DNA of 63,627 nt, counting the filler, from Hausera hauseri (Eukaryota), in assembly GCA_046269625.1 (NCBI GenBank). It is 12 parts of 12 records of this genome, joined end to end, with 100 filler letters (N's around TTAATTAATTAA, not from the genome) between each part and the next. Parts side by side here need not be neighbours in the genome. Positions count along the whole stretch, not along the records: positions 8,973 to 13,517 come from JBJURY010533343.1; positions 13,618 to 19,120 come from JBJURY010240516.1; positions 19,221 to 23,395 come from JBJURY010720435.1; positions 23,496 to 31,626 come from JBJURY010758762.1; positions 31,727 to 36,638 come from JBJURY010393368.1; positions 36,739 to 41,034 come from JBJURY010650219.1; positions 41,135 to 45,876 come from JBJURY010453357.1; positions 45,977 to 50,620 come from JBJURY010491243.1; 4 more parts are not named here. The stretch is one strand, 5' to 3'. Shown here one piece after another: positions 8,973 through 56,330 of this stretch; within the stretch, counting starts at the first letter, position 1, and each line of letters opens with the position of its first letter. Position numbers and translations under genes: made by a program. The notes beneath the pieces are model-generated. The model saw only the letters and a program-made list of their open reading frames with translations, was not told where the DNA came from and did no database searches.

Positions 8973-9152
8973 TTCATCTAAATAGAGAGGTATTCTACTG
9001 ATATAGGCTTGTTGGTCAACACCTAATCCTTCGCTTAATAAGCGATAAGTTTTTAAACACTTAAGTAAACCGGCCGGGTCACTGTATATTTTTGGAATAT
9101 TCAAAGTCTAATGTATAGTTAAGTTAATGGGTTGCTGTGTGGCTTGTGCCAT
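8973..9152 (-). pseudogene. gag: Gypsy gag N-terminus, truncated by contig end
   Basis: MAQATQQPINLTIH*TLNIPKIYSDPAGLLKCLKTYRLLSEGLGVDQQAYISRIPLYLDE, downstream of LTR and PBS; capsid-like LPLYL motif. Confidence 0.55.
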
Positions 9153-9787
9153 TTCGTTTTGTAAATCGGGATATAGTAATGTGAGATTTAAAGATTCTAG
9201 TGCTATTACTAAATCTTTAAGTTCTAGAAGTTGGGTGGAGTCGACAGTGGCGCGTTTAATAGGATTTCATTTTGTTTTTCTGGGTATATTTGTGTTTTAA
9301 CTTTAACCCTGTTTTAGAGAAAAGTCCTGCTAGGGTCGCAAGAAATGTTGGTTCTCTGTCCAAAATTTCCACTTTACACGAAAGTTTTATTTGGATTCTT
9401 GTCTCTTTTGCTATTTGAATTTTATCCAAATAGGAACGTCCGTAGTTTTATTGCGTTATAGCACAAATCTTTTGCTGATTGTTTTTAGCAAAAATTATAT
9501 AAATCAAATTGGTAATGTTGTTAGTAGTCCTATGTTGTAGTATGGAGTAGACTTTAAGAAGAAGATATTTGTAATCTTCTTTCGATTTAAATGCCAAATA
9601 GGCAGAGCAATTTAACTCTGGCCTTACTGAAAACAATGGAATTAAATAGTATTTTTTGGGTTGCTTTTTCTGTATTAACTTCCTTTATAAGAATTTTAGG
9701 ATTTCCAGTTTAAAGCAGACAGTTAATTAACCTTAATGTTTAAATTTATTTAGTTAATGTGTTCAGCGTTGGTCTACTATGTTTTCG

Positions 9788-9797
9788 ACCGCTGCCA
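9788..9797 (-). promoter_or_regulatory. Primer-binding site, tRNA-Leu type
   Basis: Minus strand GTAACA-G-TGGCAGCGGT: TGG-starting tRNA complement 1 nt after the LTR-terminal CA. Confidence 0.75.
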
Positions 9798-9798
9798 C

Positions 9799-10566
9799 TG
9801 TTACTTAGTGGTTAATAAATTAAATTATTTCAAACAAAGTAAATCAATTAAGTCGTGAAATAATTTTATAACGATGAACAAAAATAAACAAACCGAACGC
9901 AATGTCGACTGACAATGAATTAGTTTGTATTTGCAGTACAAGAGGAGATCGGGAAGAGGCTGACTCCACAATATCAAAATTGAAATTGAAAAGATTTCGA
10001 CTGATTCAAAAATCTCTGGTTTCACTGTCTTCTTTTATTTAGAAGCGTGCTACTCAGTTAGTTTTAATTTTTTGTCGTCGTTATTATTTTATCTTTACAT
10101 TATATAATAATTTTTATATCGGGTGGAAAACTTACAATACTGTAGGTGTTGTTCTAATTTTCTAGTAGGTGAGTGATTATCTGTGGGTGCTTTTTCGTTA
10201 CAGATACTATTAGTACATAAAGTCTGTGGGTGCTTTTTATTTACTATGCGTAAATCGTTGCAGATATTATTAGTGCATAAAGCGTAAATTGCTACCAATA
10301 TTGTTGTGAGTATTCTGTTGTGCGTAGATTGCTGTCAGTGTGATGATCTTGTAAATTGCAGCGGATATCATCGCTAATAATTTTACTAATTGAATGCAAA
10401 TTACTACGAATTGTTATCGTGTTTCGATTGAATATTGAATTGATTGTTAGACGTAAATTGAAACGTTAAATGCAAATTTCTATTGCATTTGGTTAAATTA
10501 ATTCGTGTTCCTTTAATTCTATTGACATTTTATGTTCTATAAAAATTTGCTCATTGTTCCTCAACA
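9799..10566 (-). repeat. LTR, 768 bp
   Basis: Minus strand begins TGTT right after a PPT and ends AACA right before a PBS; short internal repeats around 10180-10290. Confidence 0.8.
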
Positions 10567-10578
10567 TCTCCCCCCTTT
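10567..10578 (-). promoter_or_regulatory. Polypurine tract
   Basis: AAAGGGGGGAGA directly before TGTTGAGG. Confidence 0.8.
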
Positions 10579-10798
10579 AAAAGAAAAAATTTTCATTTCG
10601 TTTAAAAGGAAAAATTTTATCAAATTTAATCAAATGAGGTCGATTTTCTCGTAGCAAAAAAAATAAAATGTACATAAATATTACAATTTATCATAAAAAT
10701 ACAGAGTATGAAAACATAATAGATAAAGGAGTATAGACAGAAGCAATAATGAAATATATACAATGTAAGAATGTCCGTTCTTGATCCACTGGTTACTA

Positions 10799-12541
10799 TC
10801 ATATCTGGATTGTGATGAGTGTTTTGATTTGGAAATCAGTATTTGATTCTTGGACTGTAGTTATTCTGTATAAATTTTCCAGAATATAATTGTTCTTTGT
10901 TGCAAATAAGATCATTCTGATCTTGCTTTTATTCGTATTTTTTAATAGCAGCGGTCGGCCTCCCCTTGGTTTAGGAAGAGGTATGATATCCAGTTGTATA
11001 GGAATTGGTTGGAATGTAAGAATGGGCTTATGATTAAGTAGTTTAATAGATTCTAATTTTCCTCCAATTAATGCTAGATGGAGGGTATTGTATATTGTAT
11101 TTTTATATACAATACCAATTGGAGTTCCAAAATTATTATTTGGAACCAAGAGACGATTATTTGTGATAACTGAAACAGGTTGTGGTACATATCTAACATT
11201 GATACATTGGCTGATTTGTCCGTATAATAGCATTGATAGTTCCGTTTGAGGTTTTGGTTCTATGTTTTTGGGTATAATATCCGTACTTTTCTTCAATTGT
11301 TCGATTGGAGATAATTCCTTATTTTGAATCTTTTCATATCTATAATTTTCGTGGTAAGATGATGGTATCTTTGGTAAACTACCATAATCAATTAAGTTAT
11401 TAGAGGGTGGTTCCCAATCATAGATCCACTTCTCGTTTGAGCAGGAATTTTCTATTTTACTAAATATTTGAATAATGCTTTTTAAAATTAATTCTGCTGT
11501 TTTTGGAAAACTATAATCAAAACCATACACCATTGGCATTTGAGTTAAATTTGGCTTAAGTCCCTCTTCCTGGAATCTTTGTTTGGTATTCTTTGTTGCC
11601 AATAAATCTAGTTTTCCGAATGTAAAATCTTCTGGAATTCGAAGGGCTTTAAGGATGGTGCTTGTATTAGCACTAATAACGAAATAGCCAAAGAGATATT
11701 GAATTATTTCGTTTCGAACTTCGTTTTCGTCAGGTGATTGCTGGATGATCTGCATGGTTAATCCGTGTATATGTTCATTGGTGTTGGCTATTCTTCTTCT
11801 TGGATTAATGAAGGACTGGTATATCACCAATTGGTTTTCGTCGGCAATAATAACCTCTATGGGTAGCGGGTCTCCATTAGAGGCATAGGCCAATGATACC
11901 GCTAAAAATCGGTAATTATAAGTCGTGGTTAATCCATAATTATAGATATTACTATTCGGATACTGATAGAAAACTGGTGAAGTAAATCCTGCTTTGTTGT
12001 CAGTATCTTGACATGATTCAATACCCATTACTACAGGGGTAACTAAAATTCGGAAATATAATTTAGTTTTCAATGCTATAGCCTTGATTTTCATTGTATT
12101 CCTTGATACAAATACTGAAATTCTTTCTGATAGTCCGTCATAATTATCAGAGTGGGCTCTCAACTGTATCTTTCCTTGGGCCATATGGATTAAAATTTTC
12201 TTAGTGGATTCTTCTATTTGTAATAGGTTTGTTAAATCTACATTGTATAAGGGTTTATCGAATTTTATTATTCGAAACGAACGGTTTGAGAGTGTATTAG
12301 TTTTCAGTGTATTGTCCAAGTATTTACACTCAGGATAAAGAATATCTGTGGATTCGTTTGTTAGTTCTGTTAAACGATTATAGAACTTTGTCGAGTAGAG
12401 ATTTCTCCTGGTATCATAAATTCGGATAAGATTTTTGTCATATAGTTCATTCAATGATTTATTCTTAATTCGGTTCATTTCATTTTCTTTTAAATTTTCT
12501 TGTACCGTAGCTTGTAATTTTCTTTGTTTAGTTTCACGCAA
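10799..12541 (-). CDS. 3' accessory ORF of LTR element with DEDDh (REX4/ISG20-like) exonuclease fold, catalytic acids substituted
   Basis: FLAVSLAYASNGDPLPIEVIIADENQLVIYQSFINPRRRIANTNEHIHGLT...SPDENEVRNEIIQYLFGYFVISAN...LKALRI (about 11480-11915) follows the RNase T/REX4 pattern; ends about 220 nt before the PPT. Confidence 0.6.
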   Translation of the reverse strand: MRETKQRKLQATVQENLKENEMNRIKNKSLNELYDKNLIRIYDTRRNLYSTKFYNRLTELTNESTDILYPECKYLDNTLKTNTLSNRSFRIIKFDKPLYNVDLTNLLQIEESTKKILIHMAQGKIQLRAHSDNYDGLSERISVFVSRNTMKIKAIALKTKLYFRILVTPVVMGIESCQDTDNKAGFTSPVFYQYPNSNIYNYGLTTTYNYRFLAVSLAYASNGDPLPIEVIIADENQLVIYQSFINPRRRIANTNEHIHGLTMQIIQQSPDENEVRNEIIQYLFGYFVISANTSTILKALRIPEDFTFGKLDLLATKNTKQRFQEEGLKPNLTQMPMVYGFDYSFPKTAELILKSIIQIFSKIENSCSNEKWIYDWEPPSNNLIDYGSLPKIPSSYHENYRYEKIQNKELSPIEQLKKSTDIIPKNIEPKPQTELSMLLYGQISQCINVRYVPQPVSVITNNRLLVPNNNFGTPIGIVYKNTIYNTLHLALIGGKLESIKLLNHKPILTFQPIPIQLDIIPLPKPRGGRPLLLKNTNKSKIRMILFATKNNYILENLYRITTVQESNTDFQIKTLITIQI

Positions 12542-13517
12542 ATCTCCAAAGTGAAACCCTTTCGTCTAATTTCAAATACTGATGTAGAAGATTTTGTAGT
12601 TTCCATGGTTTTAGTTAAAATGGGTTGTGATAGGATCCCTCTACTCATTGAATAGGTCAGGTTTGGTATTTGAAAACTGAATGAGCAATTAGTACTCGAA
12701 TTTATCATACGCAGTTGAGTTGGTATAACCTTGCGTTTAGGGTTAGGGACCACTGTTTCGTTAGAATCATTTGAACTATTTTCATTATCAGATTCATCCA
12801 AATCAACACTGATTTTCTTTGAGTGATCGTTTGGTATATTGTCATTTGAAAAATTCTGTTCATAATCTGGAGTATTCAAAAAATCCATTCTGCTAAAAGA
12901 GAAACAACTAGTATAGCAAGTCATATTTAATGGCTTGCTAGAAGGGTAGGAGGTTACCCTTCTATATTTTATTGGTCTTGTATGCTGCTGCAAATCTATT
13001 GGTTTAGATTTGCTATAGTATTGTGATATGTGTGTTAGTATTATTGTTCTAGTTGGTGTGTGTATTTTAGTGTGTTTGCTTTCGTCATTAGATATTTTAT
13101 CCCCTTTCACGGCCACTATCCACTCCACATTATAATTCACTAAGCAAATTAGGTTGGTTGTTAGCAACAAAGTTTTATTCATGATTGCTTTCTTTTTAGA
13201 GAATCTTTTTATTTCTAGTATTACGAAGGGTGTGGATATGGACAGCAGTAGTAATATTATGATAATAAAAGGAATTGTAATTTTCAACAGGTTTGTTTGG
13301 GTACTAGGCTCAGTTGTTAGTTGCAATGGGGTGTAATTTGGAAATTCCTCATGCACTAAATATTTTTCGGTTCTCGTTTGAGTTCGGGTTGCTTGATGTC
13401 GGGTTTTAGCATAATTTTGAGTAAAAACAATCAGGTATTCTTCATCAGGCTGAAGATCGTTACATCTAGTTATTCGCTCATGTTCTTTTATAACAGCATA
13501 TATATTATGGTATTTTC
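12490..13517 (-). CDS. 5'-truncated FN3-like plus transmembrane accessory ORF
   Basis: Frame stays open to the contig edge: ITRCNDLQPDEEYLIVFTQN, T/P-rich stalk, TM ITIPFIIIILLLLSISTPFVIL, basic KRFSKKK. Confidence 0.55.
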
Positions 13518-13718
13518 NNNNNNNNNNNNNNNNNNNNNNNNNNNNNNNNNNNNNNNNNNNNTTAATTAATTAANNNNNNNNNNNNNNNNNNNNNNNNNNN
13601 NNNNNNNNNNNNNNNNNTACATTCAACTTTACCATAGTGCGATTCAGTTATAAAACCGAATATCAAATCAATTTTAAAAAATAAAAATTTTGTAAATAAT
13701 TTTGTACATTATAATACC

Positions 13719-16300
13719 TTGAATACCTACATTTCGAGCGTTGAGAGTAATGAGTCTTCCTCTTCCGGCAACATCATCTCAAAAACCACCTTACCCAATG
13801 ATCAAGTGTCTACGTCGTCATCATCCTTCATCCAACTCTTATCTGATCTTCAAGCGTTTGTCACTACTCAATGCTCAAGAATTCTCAAAAAAGATCCATT
13901 CTTTAAGCGTTCCTCCATCACATTTCACTACATTTTTACTTCTCATCAACGTCCAATTTGGCAAAAAGTGCAACCTCTCTCACCACGTCGCAGAAAAGCA
14001 GTTGCTGAGGAATTCCAGACGTTAGAGAACGCTGGCATTATCAGACGTTCTAAATCATCATGGGCATCACCTTTACACGTCATGCCCAAGAAGGAGGGCA
14101 CCTTCAGACCTTGTGGTGACTATCGCCAACTAAACACCATTACAATCATGGACGCATATCCATTACCTCTGATCAACGATATTCTGCACAGACTGCATGG
14201 TAAAACAATTGTTTTGGCCATCGATCTTCATAAGGCATATCACCAAATTCCTGTTATTCCGGCTGACATACCGAAAACGGCCGTAATAACACCATTCCGT
14301 CTTTTCGAATATGTCTATATGCCTTTTGGGCTTCGCAGTGCCTTACAAACATTCCAGAGATACATTGATACAGTTCTTGCCGGATTATACTTCGCTTTCC
14401 CATATATAGACGACATTCTTATCGCGTTGTCATTCCCCAAACAGCATGCGGAACATTTGCGCATAACTTTCCAACGCTTGCACCAGAACAACTTTGAAGT
14501 AAATTTTGCTAAATGTTGTTTTTTCCAACATAGAATCAACTTCCTTGGACAAGTTATCACCAAATTTGGCCATTCTCCCCACCAAGATCGCATCTCTCAA
14601 CTTAAAAATATCGAACTATAAACCACATCAACAGAAATGCACTCTTTCCTCGAAACGCTTCACTTTGTGCACAAGTATGTGCATCACTGTTCAACACTCA
14701 CGGCACCTGTCGCCTCACTCATCTCCGGTAAGAAGAAACAGATTATTCACTCGACTGCTGACTTAGTCAATTTTTTCGATCACCTCAAGGATAATTTAAA
14801 AACTGTGGAAATCCTCGTATACTCTGATCCACATTCGGACCTCTTCTTAACAACTGACACCTCCACAACAGCAGCAGGTGCAGTACTGCATCAATTGAAG
14901 GACGGTTCTCATCAGCTTCTTGAATTTTTCTCACGAAAATTCTCGAAAGTCAAATAACGCTACTCGACTTTTAACAGGGAACTTCTTGCAATGGTCCTAG
15001 CATTAAAGCATTTTAAACATCTTCTAATTTCACGCACATTTACCATTCAAACGAACCACAAGCCCATACTTCATATTCTCACTATGAAATCTTTATCTGC
15101 ACGTCAAGAGAGGCAGATTTTGTATCTCTCAACGTTCGCGTTCGAAATAAAACATATTTCAGGAGTTGACAATTTAGTGGCTGTTTTGTCGCGTTCCGTC
15201 GACTCGAACACACTTGCACCCATTTTTGATAGTGAGTTACTCCCACGGAACCTGCCAGACGAGTCAATTCTCTCCGTTTTCAAATCTTACAAAATCATTG
15301 ATGGCGTAGCTTTGGACACCTCTAATTTTGGGTTTACTAAAATTTATTCTATCACCTCCTTTGCATAAAACTGCTTTCACCAATATCCATTCCTTGCGTC
15401 ATCCAGGATCCAAAGTTACTTATCGCCTTCTTAAACGCCAAGTTATATGGCCATCAATGTGTACATATGTGCAGGGCTGGGTTAGGGAGTGTGGCATGCC
15501 AGAAGGTTAAAGTAGTAAGACACCTCAAGGCGCCACTATCATTTTCCTTGCACATCACGTTTTGACACCATCCACATCGACATAATCGGACCTCTTCAAC
15601 ATGATAACGGTCATCAGTTCATTCTCACAATGATGGATCGTGCTTCTAGATGGCCAGAAGCCGTTCCACTTCGTTCAACCAACAGTGAGACCATTGTAGA
15701 TGTCTTCATACGCACATGGCTCAGCAGATTCGGCTCACATAAGCACATAATCACTGATCAAGGCCCCCAATTTGAATTGAATTTTTTCAAATCATTTGTA
15801 AATTGACTTGGGATCAAGCATATTCACATAACACCTTACCATCCTCAGTCGAATGGGCTACTGGAGCGTTTTCGTCGTACTATGAAAATCTTCCTTAAAA
15901 TTTTAGCCGACTCCAATTAACACAGGGTAAACCTTCTTTTTTACGTTCTACTTGGATGGCGGAACGCCCCATCTACGACCACTGGCTGCTCGCTGTCCGA
16001 GACACTCTTTGGTACACCAGTGCGTACATTGTTCGAGTTTGCGCAGTGCGATGAAACACCCACTTACGAAACAATGCGGGCAGTGCAGGAGCACTTTGTT
16101 GCGCTGAATAGCGATTCGTTCTGCAGGATTTTAAATCACAACGAAGCATACATTCCCGACATTATACAACCAAATTTGTTTGGCAAAAGAATCCAGTGTC
16201 GCATGGTTCCAACCTCAGTACGTTGGGCCATTCAAGTTAATTCGTCTGAACTCATACTGCTATAATCCTCAAAAACGGAAAACAATGCTCGGTGCAATTA
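13719..16300 (+). mobile_element. pol: Decayed Gypsy pol (RT-RNaseH-IN)
   Basis: SSWASPLH, RPCGDYRQLN, KTAVITPF, MPFGL, YIDD, TDTS...GAVL, HPG...WP, HIDIIGPL, YHPQSNG.LERF. Confidence 0.93.
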
Positions 16301-16887
16301 ACTAAATCAAACCAGCATTCTTTATCAATGACAACCCTGATTATTCTGTTCCGCTTCGCAACAATTCCTTTCTTGATGCTTTTACCAAGCCTTCTATTCC
16401 ACCTCACAACAAACCTCTCTGACTTTTCTTCTCAGCCTTCACTAAACCTTCAATCCTGTCCTGATACTTCTCATCCTTTGTCAAACGCACAATGTTCTAA
16501 TTCGTCATTTCACAATAACAGTTCACTTCATGCCTTTCCTCAATCTTCTTCAGACCTTCAATCTTTCAAACCTACTTTACCTTTTTCCACTTCGTCTTCG
16601 ACTTATTTTCCTTCACAATCTTCATTCTCTTCGACACACACAACATCAAACACAAAACCCAAAAATCTAAGAAATCTTCCGCCACTACACACCTCTCTGC
16701 AACCTAACACAATGCACACAAACAAAACACACAGTAACATTTAGCACGTACAGTAGGGAAAAATTATTAGAAGGTATTTAACGTTTTGTCCGCACTAAGA
16801 CTGACTAAAATAAACTTCTTTTTTGGCGCCTTTCATTTCCCGTCTGTTTTTGTCTTTTATAGTTTTCAGTTCAGCCACGGGGGGTGA

Positions 16888-17135
16888 TGTGGTGCCGCGG
16901 GCGTTGCTGCGGTCTGGCTTTTGTTCTGTTGCACCGTGTGTTGGGGGTTTGTTTTCTCTTACCCGAAATTTGGCTGCTTTGAAGAATTCGGAACAGGAAG
17001 AAAAATCAAATGAATTTGGGAAATATGTATAATTTCTTTTTCTGTTCAAACATATAAATTCAAGGACACATTTATTCATAAACTTTATATACTCGATTGT
17101 TGACATTGTGTTCCTTCTTCATTTATTGAATTTAA
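16888..17135 (+). repeat. 3' LTR-like segment after PPT (GGGGGGTGA at 16879-16887)
   Basis: Starts TGTGGTGC after a G-tract; about 250 bp repeated at 17521-17768. Confidence 0.7.
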
Positions 17136-17426
17136 ATTGAAACTGAGTAAATGTTTTAAACGCCGGGCCTTGTAATTTTTGTTTTCTTTAAAATTTTTTG
17201 AAAGTGAAAAGAGAACGAGTAATTCCGCTAGGCAGTATCCACGGCACTCGTTTCTTGAGAAAAATTGAAAAAGATAAAATGAAAATAAAAGGTGAAAAGG
17301 GAAGTTTTATTTATAGCTAGGTGGTATTCGTATTTCGGAACACAGAAATTCTTTTGGAGCAACATTTAGTGATATAATATAAAATGATAAAACTTTTTGA
17401 GGACAATAATATTGCAAATTATTTTG

Positions 17427-17504
17427 AAGCTGATATTTCGATCGTATTAAGATCATCGTTAGAGTACTCTGACGAAGATCTTAATAAGATCAAAATATCA
17501 GCTT
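17427..17504. ncRNA. 78-bp imperfect palindrome made of two inverted degenerate minimal hammerhead-like motifs
   Basis: + strand CTGACGA-A-GATCTT-AAT-AAGATC-AAAA-TATC; - strand CTAACGA-T-GATCTT-AAT-ACGATC-GAAA-TATC; arms differ at 4 positions. Confidence 0.5.
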
Positions 17505-17520
17505 AAAAAGAATTGCAACA

Positions 17521-17789
17521 TGTGGTGCTTTGGGCGTTGCGGCGGCCTGGCTTTTGTTCTATTGTGCGGTGTGTTAGGGGTTTGTTCTCTCTTATCGGGA
17601 ATTTGGCTGCTTTGAAGAATTCGGAACAGGAAGAAAAATCAAATGAATTTGGGAAATATGTATAATTTCTTTTACTGTTCAAAGACATAAATTCAAGGAC
17701 ACACTTATTCATAAACTTTATATACTCGATTGTTGACATCGTATTCCGCCTTCGTTATTGAATAAAATTAAAAGCGAAAAGATATCAAC
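17521..17789 (+). repeat. Second LTR-like copy (solo LTR or local duplication)
   Basis: Similar to 16888-17135; starts TG; possible end TATCAACA; no TSD seen. Confidence 0.65.
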
Positions 17790-18652
17790 AGTAATGCTCG
17801 ATTACTATTAACTTTTGAACAACTTTCAATTCAGTCCTTAATCAGGGAAACTCGTCTCATTTCGTTCGGCCAATGGGCGAGAGGCCGTGCTCGTGCGGCG
17901 ATGTCGGTGGCCTTGAGCGTCGGGCCGTTTTCGGGTATCCAAAATTTACAAAGCGCGAATGCGTTTCAAACAGTAACATCAATAACAGTAATCACAACCA
18001 CAGTTTCTTGTCCGACACCGAAAATCAGTTTTTTGCACGTGAGGTTAATAAATAGCAGTAAAACATTAACTGCATCGATAACCAAATCAGCGCAACAAAG
18101 CAAACCAAATCAGAAGACTAAAAATCAATACACCGATCACGGAATTGATATTTATCGGAAATACTAAAGAAAAAAAACCGCAGAACGTAAATTCCATCGA
18201 TCGACGAATCACAAATATAAACATCATAGATTGCGCAATAAAAACAGTAAATATGGTAGAAAAACTGAAATCGATAAAATTCTACATTGCCAGTCAACAA
18301 TTTTCCTTGCAAATATTCAGACTAATGTAAACAAGTGCCGAAAAGTGACACATGGTCGATTCGCCCGACCTTAATAATTTTTTGTATTATGGCAAAAAAT
18401 TTATTTCTTGTTTAAATTTTGAAAAGAAAATAATTTTTTTTGGTTTCACAAGAATTTTCTAGTTTTTTGGAAGACATATTGTTACATATGCTATCATGAC
18501 CATTACCCGCAAGATTCAAAACTCATTCTCCGACGATAACAAAATTAAGGGGGTTTGAATCAGACCGCTACCAGGGCGCAATCAAACCCCCCCCCCCGAA
18601 AGATTTCTTGTAAAATGATTCAGGGAAAATTCGCATTCCGTTTGGAACTAAC

Positions 18653-19120
18653 ATGGCTACTGTTTTCAACAAAAATCGAAAGCGAATTGTCCTCACCGTG
18701 GAACAAAAACAGGAGATAATTGACAAACTAAAAAAGGGTGTAAAGCGATCAGATCTTGCCAGAGTCTACAATAACAGATATTAAGAACAGTGAATCAAAA
18801 TGGCAAGAATTTGTTTCCGAAATTGATTGTGCTGCTGCAACCGACTGCAGGAAGGTCATTCGTTTGTCAGAAAATCCAAAATTGGACAGGGCCTTAAAGT
18901 TATGGTTTATTCAAGAAAGATAAAAAAGACAACCAATATCTGGACCAATATTGATTGAGAAAATTCCGGTGATGATGAATTGGTACAGCTAGCAAAGAAC
19001 AGTCATAATGATGCACTCAACACCATCAATACAACAATAGACTGGATTGAACAACAGTCTGAATGTCGGTCGGAACAACTGTTGCTTCTACGCCGTTTAA
19101 AAGATTTAGCTGCTTCCAAA
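18653..19120 (+). mobile_element. Internally deleted Tigger/pogo (CENP-B/jerky-like) transposase
   Basis: KRIVLTVEQKQEIIDKLKKG (HTH_psq), LDRALKLWFIQER...PISGPIL (HTH_CENPB), joined to C-terminal SHNDAL...WIEQQ...LRRLKDLAASK; DDE domain absent. Confidence 0.85.
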
Positions 19121-23495: not shown

Positions 23496-23573
23496 ACAAA
23501 TAAAAAACAACAACAGTGTATTTAGAGGTCAATAAAATGGGCCAAAAGTGCATGACCCTTGTTGGGCGCAACA
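23496..23573 (-). repeat. Start of 3' LTR, truncated by contig end
   Basis: Minus strand GCGGGGGCGGGATTGA then TGTTGCGCCC, downstream of integrase. Confidence 0.55.
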
Positions 23574-23639
23574 TCAATCCCGCCCCCGCGGCAAAGCAAC
23601 GATTAGAGAGGCAAGAAAGTAGAAAATGTGTAGAAGCGG

Positions 23640-31289: not shown

Positions 31290-31626
31290 ATTGATACATT
31301 AAAACAAATGTACAAATGCAGTATGTTGGAAATACAAGTGCAACATGTTGGCAACAATATGTAGTGCCGAATTTACCCTACTATTAAAAATATTTATTTT
31401 TCCTTACGTGTGTTTTGTTTTACCGCATCCATAATCAAATGTAGAATCCTGTTCACAAGTCGAGTATTCGAATACTTGAAAATTGATTAATTTCGGTGTT
31501 TCACTGTGAATTTCAAGGTGGTGAAGCAAATTTAGTGGGCAAAACCATTTAATTTATGCATTAAAACAAATGCAACACGTTGGTAATACAAGTGTAACAT
31601 GTTGACAACAATATTCAGTGCCTAAT
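31290..31626. repeat. Dispersed or satellite duplication, period about 260 bp
   Basis: ATTAAAACAAATG...ATACAAGTG.AACATGTTG.CAACAATAT..AGTGCC at about 31298-31370 and 31560-31626. Confidence 0.65.
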
Positions 31627-33462: not shown

Positions 33463-34119
33463 AAATCGGACGCAAACGTCATGTCGGTTATTATAATCGT
33501 AAACGAAAAGGAAAACCAATGTTCTTGTACAAGCGAAAAATGACAAAACCTACTACGCGAAGAAATAATGCAGGCGATGACGAGCCTAAGGGAAAAGTAC
33601 TTCCAAGAACAGATAGACATAAGATGTATTCCATCATTAAAGCACTATTACCTATGCTACCCCCGACTCTCCAGTCTATGAAGACTGTGACAAGTGATCA
33701 ATGAGCTCATATCAGACAGAAATCTATAAAAGGATGATTAGTTTAGAAGACCCTTACGAAGGAACGAAACGTTATGGAGTCCTACGGAAAATGAGTTATC
33801 GACAGCCCGTGGATGACCCAAGAATATTGTATTTCCCCAGAGAACCTCGGAATATAGAGACTAGATCGCCTGTCTGGGAAAATCCAAGGCTAAAAACTTT
33901 CCAGAATAAAGAACCACACACTAACAATCAAGAGCCATTAATTAGTACTCATGAAGCGGAAGAAGTGAACATCGAAAACAATGAATTGTATCCAAACGGA
34001 GAATTAAGACAATTATCGGAAAATATAGTATCTTCCCGGGAAATCTGAATAAATGGACATAAAATATCGGCGAAAAAACGCCTAAAAGCTGCATCAAACT
34101 GTTTTGGGACAGTAATAGA

Positions 34120-39419: not shown

Positions 39420-40950
39420 ACAATTCTTTTTGGTGATCATAGCAATTTCCCTGCGAACATTGATTTACGATAAGGTTTTAAAATTTGAGAAATAAACTTT
39501 TGGCTTATTCTGTGTAAATTCGTATCAACATTCGTTCAAAATCTCAAAATTTTAGATTTGGTAAATCATGGCTGACTCATGGTTGAAAAGGTTACCCCCT
39601 ACAGACGGTGTTTTTCGTGATGATAATTTTGGTAGAATCATTATAGACGGTTCTAAAAAAATTTGCGGTGTCTGTACATTTGATCGGTAATAATCAAAAC
39701 AATCACCACAACACGTATGTAAATTTTCGACTGTTATTCTGTGATTTGATTGTTTCCAGAAATCAGGATTATAGACCGGAATTACTATACGGCGATTTTG
39801 ATCATTTCAAGTGCGAAATATTTTTGGAATTGATTTGATCTTGTTCTTCAATAAATTAAGCATAAGCAATTGTTCTGATTAGGGTAAATCAGGAACAATT
39901 TTTAATTTATTGTAATCCAACAACAGTTCCTGTAAAACCATTTGTAATACGTTTAAAGACTTCATCTCTTCAGTTTGATTCTTTTGTAAGTTGAGTGTCA
40001 TTAGTTTTGATAGGTTTGAAAATACATAGGGAGTTAATTTGGTTTCATTATGAGATATATTCAAATAAACCAGCTTTGTTAAACTGCCAAATTGTCTAAC
40101 ACTGCCAACTTGGTTAAGTGGCATAAGTTTGATATTCTTGGAGAAATGTGTGATAAACATAACTTTGGAATCCTTATATAATTAAAGTTTTGGATAAAAG
40201 GATCAATAGCTCTGATTGCAGCAGAGATCCTCCGAGGACAGAAAACGGGCCCGGGAAACCGGTGCAACAGTGGCCAATCTATTGCGCCCAATTGTGTCCG
40301 ACAGAAAAATGCCAGGGTGCCGGAACGCACGAAAGGCACCACAATGTAGACAGAGGTATATGGTCGTTTCAAGTGGTATTTTTTCGTGGTCGTAGTAATT
40401 GCATTATATGATTTGACGTTGGATTGAATGTGACATGTTAGATTATGGTCGTCATTAGAAATAATTAAGAAATAAAAACACTTGACTGAAAAGGTTCATC
40501 GACATTTGTAGATAACATTCATATCAATAACATTCAGTTGTATTCACTGAATAAGTTTGATTTGTTTTGACATAATATAGTAGGAAATCCAAAGACCCTA
40601 TTAGGGCGGGGCTAGTGTGTTAGGATGTCGTATAGGAACGTCCAATAAGCGTTACAATTGGTCTAGAAACAAGAAGATCTCTTAAGGAAATGGTTTAGTC
40701 AATTTGAAAAAGATGTTTTTGTTGTGTGAAAAATAAATTGGTCATTATCTTGTTTGTTTCTTGTCTTTGTCCTTAATGTAGTTGCATCAAATGGATATTA
40801 AACAATTCAACCTGGAAATCTGAACTACCAAAATCGACCATGAAAAATATAACCGAAATGTATGGAGGATCCGGTGGAAGCTTGCTGGTTCGTTAGTCAA
40901 ATCTAAGTTGGTACAGTCTGCTATGACGATAACTTGATAGCTGTGAATAT
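39420..40950 (-). pseudogene. Decayed Toll-like/extracellular LRR protein
   Basis: LRRNT-like IADCTNLDLT near 40920; LTKLVYLNISHN, FSNLSKLMTLNLQKN, LQELLLDYNKLK; many stops; an unrelated GC-richer stretch at about 40190-40400. Confidence 0.55.
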
Positions 40951-41134: not shown

Positions 41135-41692
41135 TTTAGTAACGCTATGAAACATCGCTTTCTGTATACGCATTTCGGTTTCGTAAAAATCCACTACTAC
41201 GATGTTTGATTCTAATCATTTTCCGGTATCGTATTCCGCACCGTAACAATGTCCATTGTGCATATCTAGTCTTCCTGCTGCCACTTTATACACTCTGATT
41301 ATTTTTCCCTGCTACATTTTTATTTTCATATCGTCCCATTTTATTCTTCCCGCTTTTCTAGCTTGCTTACAATGCTGTCTCTCCAAATTCATCGGGATTA
41401 ATGGGGTTGTTGGCTTAATTACTGACGAGTGCCCATGCACCAGTACATAATGGAAAATGCTGCGAGATCGCCGCAACATACATTCTACTCCATGCAAGGT
41501 AACTAGTTCGCGTTGATGACATAATATATAACTTTTCTCTTTTGTTTCTAATCTGTGGGGCCTCGCATTTTCGCACATTTTCAAGTCCATTAACAAATAT
41601 TTTTGGCCAAGTCTAAATTTGTCACAATCATATACCGTGACTGCGCCAATTTGCCTTATTAACATCATTATGGTAAAAAATTGATTAGCCAA
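41135..41692 (-). pseudogene. env: N-terminus of chuvirus-like glycoprotein
   Basis: Hydrophobic FFTIMMLIRQIGA then VTVYDC; ECMLRRSRSIFH, RQHCKQA, HCYGAEYDTGK; closely similar to 31727-32200. Confidence 0.8.
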
Positions 41693-41778
41693 TTCGATTC
41701 ATTTCCTCTGCGATTTCCAGTTACATTTCGTAGCAGATCTCCGAATCTATTGTTATCAAAGAAGAATCCACTCAAATG

Positions 41779-44700
41779 TTATTCCTGTTTTTCGAATAAC
41801 TTAGACCTGTTCACTTCTCGGGGTAGCTTCCTGGCAGCCTTCCTTGTCAAGCTAGTAGCCTTGTTAAACTCATTTTCTCGATTCGGATTGCTTTTGATGG
41901 CCATATATAGCAACACTTTTCTCAGTTCCTCTATGGTATTTTCTACCAAAATTTTCTCAATTATAATTTCATCGCTTAAAGTACTTTTGGTTAATTTACA
42001 CTGGAGGTTCTTTATGGCCTTGGCGGCGTTCGCTATGGCCTTCTCCTTCTCGTTTAATATATCACCATCGAGGTTAGAGTGGTTTACTATTCGTACCAAA
42101 TTTTTCATAAGTTCGTTCAGCTCCTCATTATCCGCATTAAAGGTTGGTATGGACATCTGCCTTAATTCTCTGATTAAGTCTCCATTATAGTCGATCTCCT
42201 TCCGCATTTTCCGTGGTCTGCCGACAGGACACTTTTGTTTTGTTATAGGAAGTACATTGATATCGATCGGTACTAAATTTTTATCATATTGCTCATTATC
42301 TTCATCTTTTGCAGGTACTCGAAATATACTGCTGCATCTCCGACTCCTATTATTCTTCCTACCTGTTGTTCGGCTTTAGCCTTCCTTATGGCCTCTTCTT
42401 TTGTTTCATTGATAGTGGTGGTTACCACCAACCGGTTTAATTCTCCTGGATAATTTTAACATCATCAATAATTCTGTCTCGTCTAGTATTCTTCCTCGGA
42501 AATAAAGTCTATAGCTCAGCTCATGGACGTATCCGTTATTCTTTATCCACAGTAATACATATTTTACAAGGGAGCGCGTAGTGAACTCTTGTTCTTTTCG
42601 TCCATCCAGTCCGATGCTAATTTTACTAGAATCGTCTCTTCTGCTTTTGCTTTTAGGATTTTGGCATATTCTTTGTGTAAACGCTTAGGTACTGTACTGA
42701 AGATCGTACCTTCACTAGCTAATTTAGTTAGAGTGGGGACTAACCGTCTTAACTGAATTTCAGTGAGATTTACCTCGATCAGCTGAGTTAAATTTTTCTC
42801 GGTTTGTGCTGGGTCCAGAATCATCCCTATATCGAACCTTTGGTCTGGAGAATATATCTCCATTTCGCCTAAGTATATTGGGGTTTTCGGATTCTCCGCA
42901 ATCATTGCATCTAAATAGGCCTCCCAATCTGGTTCATTTTTATTATCTGGCAGTTGATAGCTCCTCGACGGTATATCGGCTGGCCTGTCTACACCCGCGA
43001 GCTATGTAATTGCTCTGAGTTCTTGTAGTTTCTGTTGCATTTGGACCATTTTCGTCGTTCGGAAACATCGCCCATTAGCGGACGTTTGGTGGAGCAGTGT
43101 TAACATTGAACATAAATTAGCCCATTTTCTTGAAAATTTTTTAGTTCAGACGTGACATCTCTTTGCCATCTTTGCACGAATTGTGCCTTGTCCGCTTTTT
43201 CAGCTTCTGTAAGGGCGTATTTGTTTTTATACACTTCGAGTACTCTAGCTAGTTCGTCTAATCTTATCGCTCTCTGCTTCGTCTTAATGCAAATTTCTTC
43301 GACTTGCTGTATTTGTTGCAACAATTGTCTTAATTTACTGTCACTAATTTCTGCCATTTCCCCCATCAATAGCGCTAATTCGTATATCTCATTAATGCTG
43401 TTTGAATCTGGATCGATTGCATCTAATAATTTTTTACAAATTTGATCTCTTTGGAATTAAGGTTGCGGTCCTTCTTTATTTTAATTAGTTCGGCATAATG
43501 CCTTTGATCCGTTCCGTCCATCCATCCTTGTGGCTGGTGTAAGAATTTCACCGTTTCTTCAACAATCGACCGATTTTCGCGACAAAAGTCCAAGGTTTTA
43601 AGGTCTTGGATCGAGATTTCTTCAATAAGTTTAGCTGTCAACCATCGTATCCTTTCAGACCGACATATCTTAATCGCGGATAGAAATCGCAAGTCGCATT
43701 CCGTTTTCGAATAAAGTTTGTTTCATAGATCATCTTATATATATCATTTAGTATCATCGTTTCTTGTTTCTTTTCCATAAAATTCAATTGACGTAGCGTC
43801 TCGAATTGGGTTTGGATGTCATTTTCTGCTCTCATTGTATCTAGATTTCGGGCGTCTTTCTCTAATTGCTTCTTCACTGTAGGCTCACTCTCGGAAAATT
43901 CTTTTTTTCGATCGCCTACTAATTTACTCAGCCTCGTTATTATTTCGGACCATTCTTTCAACTGATTAGCGATTTCTGGCTTTGCCAGTATTGCTTTGTT
44001 CAAAAATTTGCGAGCGTCTTCTAGCTAGTCATCTAAACCTTTAATAAAATCGATGATCCGGTAGGCATAGTCAAACTCGTCCTTGTATTCATCGGACTCG
44101 AGGATACAAGTCAGAATTATTTTCTGCATTTTATTATTTGCCGGGTGCATGATCCTAGTTCTTATACTATATATCTGCGACCGTTTTTCGACTTCAATTT
44201 TAATACGATTCTCCAGATTTGCATATTGCTTGGAGGCCGTCGAAGCGATCTTTATCATTTCTGTTAAGGGTGAAATATCTATTGGTTCTATGCCCAACAT
44301 CTCTAAGTCGTTTGCATCTCGTTGCTCGACTATGATGAATCTAATTTCGTCCATGACACGCTCCAAATTACGTACTACTTTTTTTAATTTCGGGTTGGCT
44401 TCTAATATAGCTAATAACGACTGAGCCTTGTTGATCCTAGTTTCAATGTCTTGGGTAGTTTTGTCCCACGTCTCCGGAAATTTCGCCTTGCGTTTGATCC
44501 ACCGTTCTAATTCACGTTTCTACTGAACAAGTGTTTCTTTAGCCACTTTTTCGGGCTGATCTAGATCTATAGCTTCGCTTAGTTTTCCTTCACTACACAA
44601 CTTCATCTTTTTATATAGTCTGTCTACGAACTGCTGTTCCTTACCAGAAATATCAATTTGTTCGCTTATTGCTTTGAGCTTCTCTAGGTTCTGTCGTAAT

Positions 44701-45482
44701 ACCTCTGGATTGCGACAATTCATCCTCATTCTTTTTAACTCCTCTGCATTTTTCCACAAACGCCTTATCTTCCACTTTTTAGGATAAAGTTTCTCCTCTT
44801 GTTCTGTTTCCTCTTCGCTAGTGAGTAAAGGACATACGTCATTTATTTCATTTATAGATTTTGTCGGCTCATTCATTTCGCTTGGCGTAACTAAATTTAT
44901 TTCTGGAACGTTCGAGGCACACTCCGTGTCGCTTTTTAACGCGATTTCGGTTTCTCTCTCTATCTTAGATTTCTGTTTGATCATTGGGGATCTCGAACGG
45001 TCTTTACGTTTCCGTCTCAGTAATAGGCTACGGCCTCTATTTTTGGTAATTTTAAGTATAAATGGTTCGATATATTCTTCTTTTTCGTCCACCACTGCCT
45101 CCTTAGTTACCGTTTTTATAATATATTTAGGTTCTACATCCGAATCGGCTTCGCCTGTGGTCTCAGGCTTTTCTATTTCATCTAACTTTTTGTTTATTGT
45201 AAGAACGTTCTTTTCCCCTACCATATCACTGAGCCTTGGTGGGGCAATGGAACGTTCATACTCCGTTTCTGGTTCACGCAGGCCATGGTAAACTTCCATT
45301 AGTCGTAATTTGTGCTCATATTCGTTTCTAGCCACTAAAACTTTGGGGTCCTTGGTTTCAGGCTGGGCTTTTAAAAAACGCCGTAAATCCTGTATCTCGA
45401 TAATCATTCCTGTTTCTCTACGAACACCGTAAATTGCTTCTAAATTTTCATTTTTAATTACGTTAGTGTTACTAGGTTCCAC
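41779..45482 (-). pseudogene. About 1200-codon charged/helical region between gag zinc knuckle and env, decayed
   Basis: ORFs 44520-45482, 44025-44366 and 43638-44003 share one frame (single TAGs between them); four more co-oriented pieces follow after frameshifts. Confidence 0.7.
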
Positions 45483-45876
45483 AAACGAGACACTTCGCGG
45501 ATTCGGACAGGACCTTGCTATGTGTCCTTCTTGTCCACATGTGAAACAGACTAAATTGCCATTTCTTCCAACTCTTTGCCGGCCATCTTCGTTTAATGGC
45601 GATTTAGATCTACTCGGATTTCTATTGTAGTTTGGTTGCGACGGAGCCTGTCTAGGCGATTATCATAATTCCGGTTGTCATTCTGTCGACTAAAGTTTTT
45701 AGAGCCATCTAAGCGTTTATCTGTTTGATAATTTGATTTATTAGAAAAGCTATTTCGACTATTATCAAAATTCTGATTACTGTATCGATCGTTTCTTCGA
45801 TCATAATTACCGTTCTTGTTCCGATCCCGGTTAAACCGTCTATCATTTCTATTATTTCGGTTTCTATCGCTCCGAT
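45483..45876 (-). CDS. gag: Gag C-terminus with R/N-rich tract and CCHC zinc knuckle (45507-45548)
   Basis: CFTCGQEGHIARSC, in frame with ORF 44520-45482. Confidence 0.85.
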
Positions 45877-46399
45877 NNNNNNNNNNNNNNNNNNNNNNNN
45901 NNNNNNNNNNNNNNNNNNNNTTAATTAATTAANNNNNNNNNNNNNNNNNNNNNNNNNNNNNNNNNNNNNNNNNNNNTATATATTGATGATAGACTGGTTC
46001 GAATTTAATCAATTGACTCAATGAATAGGTTTTGACATCCTTATTATCTCTCAGCGTAGAGATAAACAATTCATTCTTCCTCGGTCATTTCTTTCAAGTT
46101 ATTGGGGATTTCACCAGTCTGATTGTACTCTACATACGTACTCTCGTGCAATTTATTGCTGATTTGCCTATAAATAGATTTTGATTTGGGGGTAAACACT
46201 ATAAAGCATTTCTGTGAGAACTCGTCGATGCTACGACGCTCGGTTCCTATCTTCGTTATCGTTGTGGTACTTACCGCTCTAAATAATAAGCAATAATGGT
46301 TAATCATATAGCAAAGTATTCTTTTGAATTAAAACCAATTCTTTGTTTGATGATGGAATAAGTCGATCTGTATTTATCAGGTTATTTCACCATAGGTTT

Positions 46400-47710
46400 T
46401 GCCTTGGGGCACCATTACTCTTAATTCTCTTTGTTTCATTTTATTGCGCTTAGTCTGGTAATTTTAGGTAACTAAGCAAAAGGTCGCAATTATCATTATG
46501 CGAGCGAACGTTGATAGTCCAATAATTGACAAAATTGGCAAAGTCGTCAATCCAGTTGGATGTTGTGTAGTGATTGGAGTTGTGATCTCGTCGTCTGTGT
46601 TTTCGTATAAATGTGGTTCTTCATCGACTTCGTCTAAGGTACGTAAAGTGAACGTTTGGTTTTGTTTATTTTGTGCATATACTTGTATTATATAATCCGA
46701 CTGTGGTTTTAATAAGTTACATTCTGTCTGATAACTTTTTAAAAGTAATGTCACAATTTAGTTATACATTTTTGAGCAGCTTATATGAATGTCGTAATTT
46801 ACTTTTTCTTACACGGAAAGCACAATCTTATGTCGCTGGGTCAAATATTTAATAGGTATACTTTCTAGTTCTCTTTTAGGCATTCTACTCGAAGTGGTCA
46901 TTTCAGTGGTAGTACTTACTTGAGTATCTGGTCTTCTTGTTGTCGTTTCCAATGAAATTTTCTGTCTCAGTTTTTGGGCGATATCCTTGTAGGTAAATTC
47001 TTGATTTCTTCGGTGGGGTTGCGTATAAATCGAATAGTATTCTGTATTCGTTTACCAATAGAATTTTACGGCAAACGTTCGTTTTACCTCATGCGATATA
47101 ACAGTAATTCGCTAACAGAGCTATCTTTTCTATCGAAAGGAATCAAATAGAGATTTGTCTATCGCCGGGCAATCTTGTTTTTGTTTTAATCTGGATACAA
47201 TTATTCCTTATGTCCCTAGAAATTCCGATTGTTATCTTCCAAAATTCGTCTATGAGGATCAATACTTCGCATAATCCCTAAGTTTTGCTTGATTAGTTTC
47301 GTTCCGCTTGGGCATGTCTATATTGAGTTGTGGTAGTGTGTAGGCTGGGGCTCCATGAAAATGATAATAAAACATTTGACGTTTACATCCTCACGATCGT
47401 TCAAATTCTAGTTCGCAGCATTTTTGTTGACTTTCATAGAAAAGTCACAGGTTTTTATTATTTTACTGGCTTTATCTATAAATCGTATCTGAAATTTTAC
47501 ATGACTTCTGACGGATCTATCTTCTATGAACTAGGCGCATGGTGTTTTCCAGTTCATGTCGTAGACTCGTAATGACTTTAAATTCTGCATATCTTCCCAT
47601 CTTTCTATATGCTGTAGTCTCTTACAGGAAGGATTGTCTCCTTTACTTTTTGGAAAATAAGAAGCTATTAATGATAGTGCCAAATTATCTGTACGTATGA
47701 TATTTGTCTG
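46400..47710 (-). pseudogene. Post-integrase type I membrane protein (Cys-containing ectodomain, Thr-rich, FN3-like, TM), decayed
   Basis: TECNLLKPQSDYIIQVYAQN, TTPITTQHPTG stalk, TM ILSIIGLSTFARIMIIATFCLV; possible splice acceptor TTTCCAG near 47708. Confidence 0.5.
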
Positions 47711-47799
47711 GAAATTATGGAAGAAGTTTTCCTTTCTTTTTGTTCTTATTTACGTCCTTCGTTCATAATTTTTAACGTTTATTTATTTTTATTTCCGTT

Positions 47800-50414
47800 T
47801 TGACGACTCTGAATTGATACGACTTCTTCTTTTCCATTCTTGTTGATATAAACTATAGTCGGAGTGGTTCTGATAATTTTGTACGGTCCTCTACCAGTAC
47901 GAGTCAATTTTAATGATGTGCCTTTCTTGGCTACTGGATAGTGCACATATATCCAATTTCTTTGTTTTAAATCGCGTGGTTTTGCTTTCTTATTATACTG
48001 CTTTTTAAACTGTTCTTGATATTCTTTGGATAATTCTTTGGCAACTTCCCAACATTTTTGTAATCGTGTCTATAATACTTCTGCGAAATTTTGTTATAAA
48101 TCTTCGGGATTTATGGTATATGGTATCATTCTTAAATCTGTTGGTAATATAGATTCTCGTCCATACAGCATGAAGAAAGGTGTGAATCCAGTTGCAGGAT
48201 GTGGTGTTGTATTAATAGCAAATTAATTCATTCTAAAAATTCGTCCCAATCTTTTTTATCTTTTGCGACTACTGTTGAAAGAATACGTATAACGACAGCA
48301 TTCATGCGCTCGACCAGTCTGTTGCATTGAGCGTGTTATACCGCAGTAGTTAATCGTTTGATCGCGAATATTTTGGTAATTTTCTCATAATAATTCGCTT
48401 GTAAAATTTCTTCCTCGATCAGTTCGGATCTGATCCTGGGTCCATATCGGCAAATAATTCTTCTTACTACACATTCAGCTAGACTTTTAGCTTTTTGGTC
48501 GATTAGTGCTACTAGCTCCACAAAATGAGTCAGTCGATCAATACAGGTTAGAATATATTTGTTATTTTTGTAAGTTGTATGTAGTGGTCCTACAATATCC
48601 ACTGACATAGCCTGCACGGATCTATCTGGTACGTTAATTGGCTTTAGTTCCTCTGTGTAGTTTTTCGTCTTTTCCTGCTTGGTTGCGCATAGTTCACAAG
48701 GGCTTACCCGTTTTTTACGTCAATGTAAATATTAGGCCAAAAGTATTTATTCAGTATTCCCTCTAGCGTCTTTTTCCAGGACACGTGTCCAGCTAGGTAT
48801 GAATCGTGTTCTGTCGTTAGAACTTCCTTTCGTAGTCCTTTTGGAATGACTATCAGTTTCCGTCCTCTTCATTCGTAATATAAAATATTTTCGTGACCCT
48901 TATTATTCAAAACTCAATATATATGTCAATGTCCCTCTAAATGTTTCTTTAGCTGTCGTCCTTTTGATATTATATCTTTTGCAACAAATTCTAAAATCTG
49001 CTGAATGACTTTATCCTTTTTCTGTTCCATTGAACTTTTGATTGCTTTATCTATGGTAAGGCGCGTTGAAGGTTTACTAACGATTAGAGCTGAGTCTTCT
49101 TTATCACGGTAATTACACTCGTCTTAGCTTTTAATCTCGATATTTCGTCAGCATCTACCTGCTTATTTCCGGACTTATACTGAAATTCGATGTTACACCT
49201 CCAGATTTCTTCGATCTATTTATTGAGTCCACATGTTGGATTGTTTGCCTGTCCTTTCAAGGTCGTGACGGCTTTATGATCGGTAACAATTATGATTTTC
49301 TATCCGTACGCATATACATTGAAGTGTCGTAGTACTTCTTTTACAGCTTATGTCTCTAATTCTGTAACGGAATAATTCTTCTCGGCTTTCTTTAACAATT
49401 GTCTTCCATATGCAATTGGATGTTCCAGTTCTTCATCTTTTCGTTTCTGAGCTAGTTCATATCTAATACCTTATTTACTGATATCTGTCTTAATTATGAA
49501 TGGCAAACTAAAATCAGGATACCTTAAAACTGGTTCGCTGGTTCATCGAAGACCTTCTGTTCGACATCCGTCCATTTCCATTTAATGCCTTTCTTAAGTA
49601 AGCGATTTAATAGTGCATTTATTTTTGAGTTATTCGCCACGTAACTGGCAGTATCCGCATAATCCTAGCCAGCATCGTAACTCTCTGATTTTGTGGCTCC
49701 ATGCATTCTGATATTCTGCAGTGATTTATTTGGTTTCGATCCTTCTTCTCCAACTATGTCCAAGGTAAGATACTGCATTTTGAGCCCATTTACATTTCTT
49801 TGAGTGTAGATTTAATCCAGCTTATTCTAATCGCATCAGCGTATCTTCGATATCCATTATTTATTCTTGTTTTTGAGGCTATCATTACATCATCTAAGTA
49901 GATGAATGCATGATATAATCCCATTAGCATTTTATTCATCATTCTTGTACAAATGACCGGTCCAGTTGTAATGCCAAACGGCCTGACACTGAATTCGTAA
50001 ACGCCGTTGTTTTAAATGCCGTTTTATAACGGTCTTCATCTTCAATCTCTACTTGCCAGTATCCAGATTATAAGTCCAGAGTGGTAAACCACTCCTGAGA
50101 GTCTATCCCGAGCTTCTTTAACGGACGGCAGTGAGAAAGTCTAATCATTAAAGTATTCAATGCTCTATAATAAATGCAAAATCGATGTTTCGTAGTACCT
50201 TTCTTTTTACCCATATGTATCGGCGAATACCAAGATCTATAGCTTGATATAATTATATCGGCCTTAAGCATCTGCTCAACTTCTTGTGATTTGAGATCTT
50301 AGTAAATGAGGTGGATGATACCATTTCGGCATCTTCTGATCTTCGAGATCAATGTCTTCATTTATCCCAGGCTTTCTTAAGCGGGATTGTTAACCTCAGA
50401 GCTTTAGCTCTACC
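47800..50414 (-). mobile_element. pol: Decayed Gypsy RT-RNaseH-IN, same family as 34120-36638
   Basis: RSWYSPI, RFCIYYRALN, LDL*SGYWQ, IYLDD, EHPIAYG, AGH..YFWP, VDIVGPL, GPYKI. Confidence 0.92.
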
Positions 50415-50620
50415 AATTTCCATGTATAATTTACAATCGCTTGTTATCATCTTGTGGTATAGTTCGGCTATTTCAACTTGTCCTTTGTAGAAATAATCGT
50501 CTCGATTTTTCAAGTAATCTTCAATTCGGATGTCGTGCGTTTTTAACTTGTAAGTTCGGGCATTTATTTCCGTTTCTGCGATGAAAAATGCTTCATAATT
50601 AGTGGCGAACATCACTACTT
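50415..50620 (-). pseudogene. env: Mid-ectodomain fragment of chuvirus-like env, fused by deletion to the pre-RT region
   Basis: MFATNYEAFF...LYHKMITSDCKL.MEI (matches 32460-32665) continues directly into GRAKA...IPLKK (matches about 34904). Confidence 0.85.
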
Positions 50621-56314: not shown

Positions 56315-56330
56315 CTCAAATAATAAACTA

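Follow-up and report, generated by a model that had tools for sequence, protein, structure and literature searches.

Do the retroelement fragments on a stretch of Hausera hauseri DNA derive from one very large element, or from several related ones? The stretch (63,627 nucleotides from assembly GCA_046269625.1, hereafter the window) is made up of 12 contigs with spacers (N44-TTAATTAATTAA-N44) between them, so adjacency within it is meaningless. A first-pass annotation had chained five contigs into a single long terminal repeat (LTR) element of 17-20 kb, with several accessory genes like a complex retrovirus. The chain consists of four contigs, here called c9 (41135-45876), c7 (31727-36638), c10 (45977-50620) and c3 (8973-13517); a fifth contig with the env-then-pol order, c2 (4682-8872), had not been named. 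The contigs are probably diverged copies of one large Ty3/gypsy lineage with the plan and mechanism described below. They likely represent fragments of several copies, decayed to different degrees and with younger ones among them, from a lineage whose likely plan is LTR, gag, a long insert, an env of the glycoprotein B (gB) type, protease (PR), reverse transcriptase (RT), RNase H (RH) and integrase (IN), a unit with fibronectin type III-like (FN3) domains and a transmembrane (TM) segment, a separate open reading frame (ORF) for a barrel-nuclease fusion, and LTR. Protein functions throughout are predicted from sequence and structure models.

Diverged copies of the gag, env and pol region

The env regions of c9 and c7 share 72.2 % DNA identity across 486 columns (E 4e-75), and c7 and c10 share 82.8 % over 209 columns in env and 73.0 % over 1786 columns in pol. 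With gaps ignored the identity of c7 and c10 is 76-84 %, with transitions approximately twice as frequent as transversions, and approximately 2.2 kb between env and pol (RT) is missing from c10 compared to c7. The homology by which these three contigs had been linked is real, but since the identity is only 72-83 % they are diverged copies and not assembly overlaps. The gag, env and pol contents assigned to them earlier (gag in c9, env and pol in c7, pol in c10) agree with the Pfam domains found.

On the minus strand of c9, the C-terminal part of gag, with an N/R/D-rich segment and a CCHC knuckle recognised by Pfam (45507-45876), is followed by a decayed, helix-prone insert of 3.8 kb (41700-45500) and by the N-terminus of env with a hydrophobic signal-like segment (41135-41698). 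The insert had been called a helical domain, for which the indications are a helix-prone composition and weak matches to Pfam families of the coiled-coil type (best E 0.0012). The plus strand of c7 contains a gB/chuvirus-type env with C-terminal hydrophobic segments, interrupted by stops and frameshifts (31727-33459), which matches Pfam PF24664 (Monjiviricetes_fusion) in two frames (E 1e-14 and 1.5e-21). It is followed at 33698-36638 by a linker, protease, PR-RT spacer, RT-RNase H (35064-36281) and integrase zinc finger in Ty3/gypsy order. On the minus strand of c10, an env fragment (50415-50620) is joined directly to a decayed RT-RNase H-integrase region including the GPY/F tail (47824-50420). 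Pfam matches to RT, RNase H, integrase H2C2 and rve were found in c7/c10, and the PR-RT-RH-IN order typical of Ty3/gypsy elements is present. The PR-RT spacer gave no dUTPase match in Pfam. A word-indexed homolog search with an env piece against longer proteins returned none of 320 candidates.

Relatives were collected with the RT-RNase H of c7 as the query, and the best 120 of 491 long proteins were retained. The top blastp match among these was P0010, the cluster of which holds P0125, a protein of 3735 amino acids encoded by one ORF. P0125 has a capsid-like start, knuckles (298-312), an insert of approximately 900 amino acids, a signal-like segment and env (PF24664 at 1530-1912, E 1e-91), and after env it continues with protease, RT, RNase H, integrase, another signal-like segment, two FN3-like repeats, a stalk and a membrane anchor. 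Its hydrophobic segments begin at residues 1272, 1845, 1878, 3327 and 3644. It is collinear with the env start of c9 (matching amino acids 1281-1460, E 8.5e-15), with env-PR-RT-IN of c7, where the PR-RT spacer is homologous to amino acids 2281-2317, and with RT-IN-tail of c10. The AT-hook-like motif GRPRK, found in the c9 insert at 42222-42208 (minus strand), precedes env in both c9 and P0125, and has one more, off-frame occurrence elsewhere in the window. The position of env between gag and pol is seen as knuckle then env in c9, as env then pol in c7 and c2, and with all three parts in P0125.

A tail of more than 200 amino acids after the GPY/F motif was present in 10 of the best 120 proteins, four of which (P0010, P0011, P0012 and P0046) have a TM segment in it. 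Together with c7 and c2 these four make up a clade, with a support of 0.896 in FastTree (124 rows) and 95/85 in IQ-TREE (39 rows, being 9 chosen and 30 drawn at random, with 8 of the top named hits left out). The rows of both trees were database hits, and the published flatworm, bryozoan and nematode elements lie outside this set. Further modules occur in P0012, with an additional FN3/TM unit ahead of the protease, and in P0046, where a protease-like domain and ankyrin repeats follow the integrase.

The c2 contig (4682-8859, plus strand) carries an env with an internal deletion (4682-5095) followed by PR-RT-RH-IN, and is another family of the same lineage, its RT being 63 % identical to P0010/P0125 and 47 % to c7. 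The N-terminal and C-terminal pieces of its env abut across the deletion. A metagenome scan gave three distant pol loci (31-38 %), which were set aside, and viral-contig scans with RT and with P0004, a database relative of the last ORF, as queries yielded no locus.

The 3′ end: FN3/TM unit, last ORF and LTR

The link from c10 to c3 had been considered the weakest of the chain, resting on one short motif and shared topology. Both motifs were found, at 46721-46680 in c10 and 13464-13423 in c3. Downstream of the integrase, the minus strand of c10 contains a decayed FN3/TM region (46467-47088) with FN3-like motifs at 47073-47032 and 46721-46680, a Thr-rich stalk and a TM segment. The corresponding ORF of c3 (12493-13515, minus strand) is intact and open at the contig edge, and encodes the end of an FN3-like domain, a Thr-rich stalk, a TM segment (approximately 13266-13216) and a tail of 230 amino acids. 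It is followed on the same strand by an intact ORF of 588 codons (10802-12565, first ATG at 12478). The N-terminus of an ORF of this same family, unnoticed earlier, is present at the end of c10 (45977-46238, minus strand), where it is cut by the contig edge.

This last ORF provides the firmer connection. A HMMER scan of 1.84 billion representatives found four relatives of the 588-amino-acid protein, and a word-indexed homolog search returned none of 7999 candidates. The last 260 bases of c10 match P0001 (45-48 % identity, E 1.1e-14) and P0004 (52 %, E 9.6e-13), and a profile of the four relatives, from which window sequence was excluded, ranked c3 (E 3e-29) and c10 (E 4e-13) as the top two of 72 frames. 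From these matches, c10 reads as integrase, FN3/TM and the first part of the exonuclease-family ORF, and c3 as FN3/TM, an ORF of the same family, purine tract and LTR.

The FN3/TM proteins of c3 and c10 aligned with a blastp E value of 0.004, and the pair was missed by a window-wide tblastn search at E<1e-3. None of 2000 shuffles reached the score of the c3/c10 alignment (z 6.5, or 5.9 for the FN3 part alone), a result which is not decisive alone because the pair had been picked by eye. Together with the exonuclease-family matches at the end of c10 (E 1e-14), it now supports the last link. The FN3 label is probably correct for the window copies, judged from sequence, with the fold predicted for the relatives only. 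From an alignment of the P0011 tail with those of two relatives, the tail was modelled as two beta-sandwiches (predicted local distance difference test score, pLDDT, 82), for which the top PDB matches in Foldseek were all FN3 tandems, LAR, Tie2 and tenascin among them (E 1e-6), and Atlas gave fn3 at 0.90. A profile of nine repeats from four relatives ranked the c10 FN3 region first (46799-46656, E 6e-4) and the truncated c3 domain second (E 0.15) among the 48 domains reported. The Pfam fn3 family had no match in the window copies.

The 588-amino-acid protein of c3 is predicted from its model to combine a 2-oxoglutarate (2OG)-oxygenase-like barrel (amino acids 37-187) with an ISG20/RNase_T-like DEDDh fold. 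The mean pLDDT of the model was 43, with the best values at residues 56-186. The barrel part aligned to Ofd2 with Z 10.9 (137 residues, root-mean-square deviation 3.2) and matched the N-terminal domain of vaccinia C16 in Foldseek (E 1e-5). The nuclease part, from a low-confidence model, matched ISG20L2 (E 4e-5) and other DnaQ folds and was given 0.87 by Atlas, and the relative P0003 matches RNase_T (E 6e-6). None of the five DEDDh catalytic residues is present in c3 (A-S-I-K-I), whereas P0003 has all five (D-E-D-H-D), and by eye no HxD/E...H triad in the barrel is conserved across the five sequences. P0004 ends in a RING finger. A weak match to the barrel domain alone (profile E 8e-4), apparently with no nuclease after it, was found at 59887-60315 (plus strand) in contig 12, and may possibly be another 3′ end.

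The order described earlier for c3, from the FN3/TM ORF and the 588-amino-acid ORF through purine tract, LTR and primer site to the start of gag, was reproduced. All these features lie on the minus strand. A polypurine tract (10567-10578) stands directly before a single LTR of 768 bp (9799-10566, TGTTGA...GTAACA), which has the TG...CA ends of Ty3/gypsy elements. It is followed by a primer-binding site (9788-9797), a 10-nt complement of the 3′ end of tRNA-Leu(AAG/UAG) as given in supplementary file 1 of PMC13524379. LTR, primer-binding site and purine tract were found in c3 only. The contig ends in the start of the gag capsid, with one in-frame stop (8973-9152). A single LTR flanked by the 3′ end of an element on one side and a 5′ start on the other indicates tandem elements, a one-LTR circle or a collapse of both LTRs in the assembly.

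The linkage of the c3 LTR to the contigs bearing pol is inferred, and the possibility was considered that c3 is a different element which acquired the accessory module at its 3′ end through exchange and lacks an env upstream. DEDD-type ORFs are common to unrelated rotifer retroelements (PMC5408684), and c3, containing neither pol nor env, has no placement in the RT tree. Against this, two adjacent modules are common to c3 and c10 in the same order. Furthermore, the best match of the c3 gag start among 123 long proteins, many of them without gag, is P0125 (amino acids 15-58), by the small margin of a score of 48 against 42 for the next (z 5.8 compared to shuffles), and it has no match to the gags of c11 or c6. 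An exchanged module appears unlikely.

Still less likely is the original proposal in its strict form, in which all the contigs belong to one family whose element of 17-20 kb has this LTR and several separate accessory genes. Its order is consistent across contigs, and c7, c9 and c10, at 72-83 % DNA identity, could be old copies of one family. However, at the DNA level c3 resembles neither c9 nor c10, the exonuclease N-terminus of c10 is 45-52 % identical to database relatives and hardly alignable to c3, and the spacing from the FN3 ORF to the exonuclease ORF is unequal (483 vs 974 nt). The non-redundant parts, taken across different copies and with the missing capsid stretch added from the length of P0125, sum to 16.3-16.9 kb instead of 17-20 kb. 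In P0125, env and FN3/TM lie within one ORF; in the plan of the lineage this leaves a single accessory ORF that is clearly separate. Because the contigs have diverged and c3 cannot be aligned to c9 or c10 as DNA, no single element with the 9799-10566 LTR can be drawn from them. The gene order proposed in the first-pass annotation holds for the lineage, from gag to FN3/TM in P0125 and for the 3′ end in c10 and c3, but not for one element.

Public contigs matched to c3 and c10 included, among the pieces listed, none that spans either contig or joins contigs, and no RNA holder was among the matches listed. Near-exact pieces reached a depth of 6-12 on c10 and 22-35 on c3. The summed depth of look-alike contigs, which is not a copy number, ran into the thousands over pol and env, over the TM region and over the gag start, and remained small across the last ORF and the LTR, which hints weakly at a family both large and diverse. 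A strong pile-up of look-alikes was also seen at 46287-46441 in c10, in the interval that separates the TM ORF from the last ORF, and may reflect either a conserved cis element or a repeat that is shared.

Polyprotein, proposed mechanism and other elements of the window

With P0125 as the model, env, pol and FN3/TM are probably parts of one polyprotein. The chain from gag to FN3 would be made in one piece and threaded through the membrane of the endoplasmic reticulum. The internal signal segment would bring Env into the lumen and the Env anchor would lead the chain back out, so that the enzymes come to lie in the cytosol, after which a second internal signal, following the integrase, would place the FN3 domains in the lumen, where the last anchor would fix them. 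Cleavage by signal peptidase and the viral protease would then free the pieces. Particles would bear two surface proteins, a gB-type fusogen and the FN3 protein, the latter most likely for attachment. Replication would proceed by ordinary reverse transcription primed by tRNA-Leu. The product of the last ORF, expressed from a subgenomic RNA, would act non-catalytically, by binding to RNA or to proteins of the host. Entry by two glycoproteins, as in herpes- or paramyxoviruses, a four-pass polyprotein cut by signal peptidase, and a dead oxygenase-nuclease countering host RNA defence are together put forward only tentatively.

The same architecture is compatible with an FN3/TM protein which is not an entry factor, but a surface protein that modulates the host or blocks superinfection, or cargo retained for another reason. 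FN3 domains are generic, and the modules of these elements are mobile, as the extra FN3/TM unit of P0012 and the ankyrin repeats before the FN3 tail of P0046 indicate. The Burro elements of planarians have host-derived regulatory domains (PMC6431247), and for most errantiviruses the sections of PMC13524379 consulted describe gB-like envs that have no partner of this kind. On the other hand, the unit has stayed behind the integrase across RT lineages which are only approximately 45 % identical, it has signal, stalk and anchor, and it is co-translated with Env in P0125. A role other than entry is possible, and is considered on the unlikely side.

Several results weigh against diverged copies of one lineage with this plan and mechanism. 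No contig in the window holds the whole gene order, none has env or pol together with the LTR, and c7, c9 and c10 are too broken to reveal a former single ORF. The insert of c9 has no significant similarity to that of P0125, and c7 is a long branch (0.98) in the IQ-TREE tree, with the weakest starred support at its joining. The ties of c3 to the chain are remote similarities at the protein level only, since direct comparison of the exonuclease N-termini of c3 and c10 gave only p 0.027 and there is no DNA match, and the pLDDT of the exonuclease half of the model was mostly below 60. The FN3 folding was run on the relatives and not on the window copies, a whole-tail profile missed the FN3 regions of c10 and c3 (best E 1.4, on c10), and pairwise FN3 tests between window and relatives gave p values of 0.03-0.25. 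The C-terminus of env has two hydrophobic segments, and should both of them span the membrane, the topology proposed here would not hold. Finally, a single ORF gives Gag and Pol at 1:1, so that a further step must set their ratio.

Other elements were also found in the window. Intron-free pieces resembling host genes are present at 1-4581 (plus strand), including a CFAP69 ARM repeat (E 4e-14), a coiled coil and a Cys-rich FGFR/GLG1 repeat (E 5e-4). The pol copies of gypsy type at 13618-19120 and 23496-31626 are related to each other (approximately 52 % protein identity) and unrelated to the finding on the lineage of c3, c7, c9 and c10. Another unrelated gypsy element, at 50721-59553 (minus strand), has intact gag (379 amino acids) and pol (1534 amino acids) with a long N/Y/R/Q-rich tail, and adjoins an intact mariner transposase (56433-57512) and a hAT fragment. 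Leucine-rich-repeat ORFs are found on the minus strand at 29727-30548, upstream of the gypsy element of contig 6, and at 39882-40181.

Comparison with known systems

The window elements are Ty3/gypsy elements of the GAG-ENV-POL errantivirus type. From the work of Chary and Hayashi (PMC13524379), this order with a gB-type env is known in Platyhelminthes, Bryozoa and Nematoda, so the layout with env before pol is already published. The shared features are Ty3/gypsy pol, a gB/chuvirus-type env between gag and pol and a tRNA-primed LTR, and by eye the env of P0125 resembles the Schmidtea env rows printed there. The words fibronectin, exonuclease and accessory are absent from the main text of that article, and further ORF arrangements lay outside the search of its authors. 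The span from LTR to LTR is approximately 10-13 kb in its seven flatworm and bryozoan rows with LTR coordinates, compared to the approximately 16-17 kb inferred here. Neither an FN3/TM unit behind a gypsy integrase nor an oxygenase-exonuclease ORF was found in searches that covered search results and abstract openings, without Repbase, and prior annotation is possible.

Env-mediated transmission outside Drosophila remains elusive according to PMC13524379, and a conserved second surface protein from the same polyprotein would be a concrete candidate for the attachment step of errantiviruses. Annotation pipelines restricted to gag, pol and env overlook the 3′ quarter of such elements, and short-read assemblies split them into pieces which resemble separate families.

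The bdelloid elements Juno and Vesta also have a gene for a DnaQ-fold exonuclease downstream of pol in an LTR element. Their ORF3, as described in PMC5408684, takes the place of env and encodes an RNase D-like (DEDDy) protein in which the residues are intact, whereas the protein found here is ISG20/RNase_T-like, is fused to an oxygenase-like barrel, has lost its catalytic residues in c3 and occurs in elements which also have env. Troyka was ruled out by its CG termini, as given in its abstract.

Burro (GYPSM1) is a giant gypsy-like element of planarians. According to PMC6431247, it encodes a single very large polyprotein in which Gag, a helical Smc-like region and an in-frame env precede PR-RT-RH-IN, and this env matches mononegavirus glycoproteins; Burro also has accessory ORFs, and decayed copies occur in related genomes. 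P0125 likewise has its env in frame within a single polyprotein, with gag before it and pol after it, whereas the window copies are too broken to reveal such a frame. Burro has a dUTPase-like domain between PR and RT, the place of the spacer which in the elements found here gave no dUTPase match. Burro exceeds 30 kb, with an ORF of 4873-5140 amino acids, compared to 16.3-16.9 kb estimated here across copies, and because of this length the elements were not filed as Burro. The MATH, BIR, BCL2, ankyrin and SUMO-like domains of Burro had no Pfam match in the decayed c7, c9 and c10, although ankyrins do occur in P0046, and FN3/TM and exonuclease-like ORFs are unmentioned for Burro in the section of that account consulted. 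Complex Retroviridae have a class I env downstream of pol, whereas the PF24664 env of these elements lies upstream of it. With one polyprotein and one separate accessory ORF, Burro and the GAG-ENV-POL errantiviruses are closer models for the lineage than the complex retrovirus to which it had first been compared.

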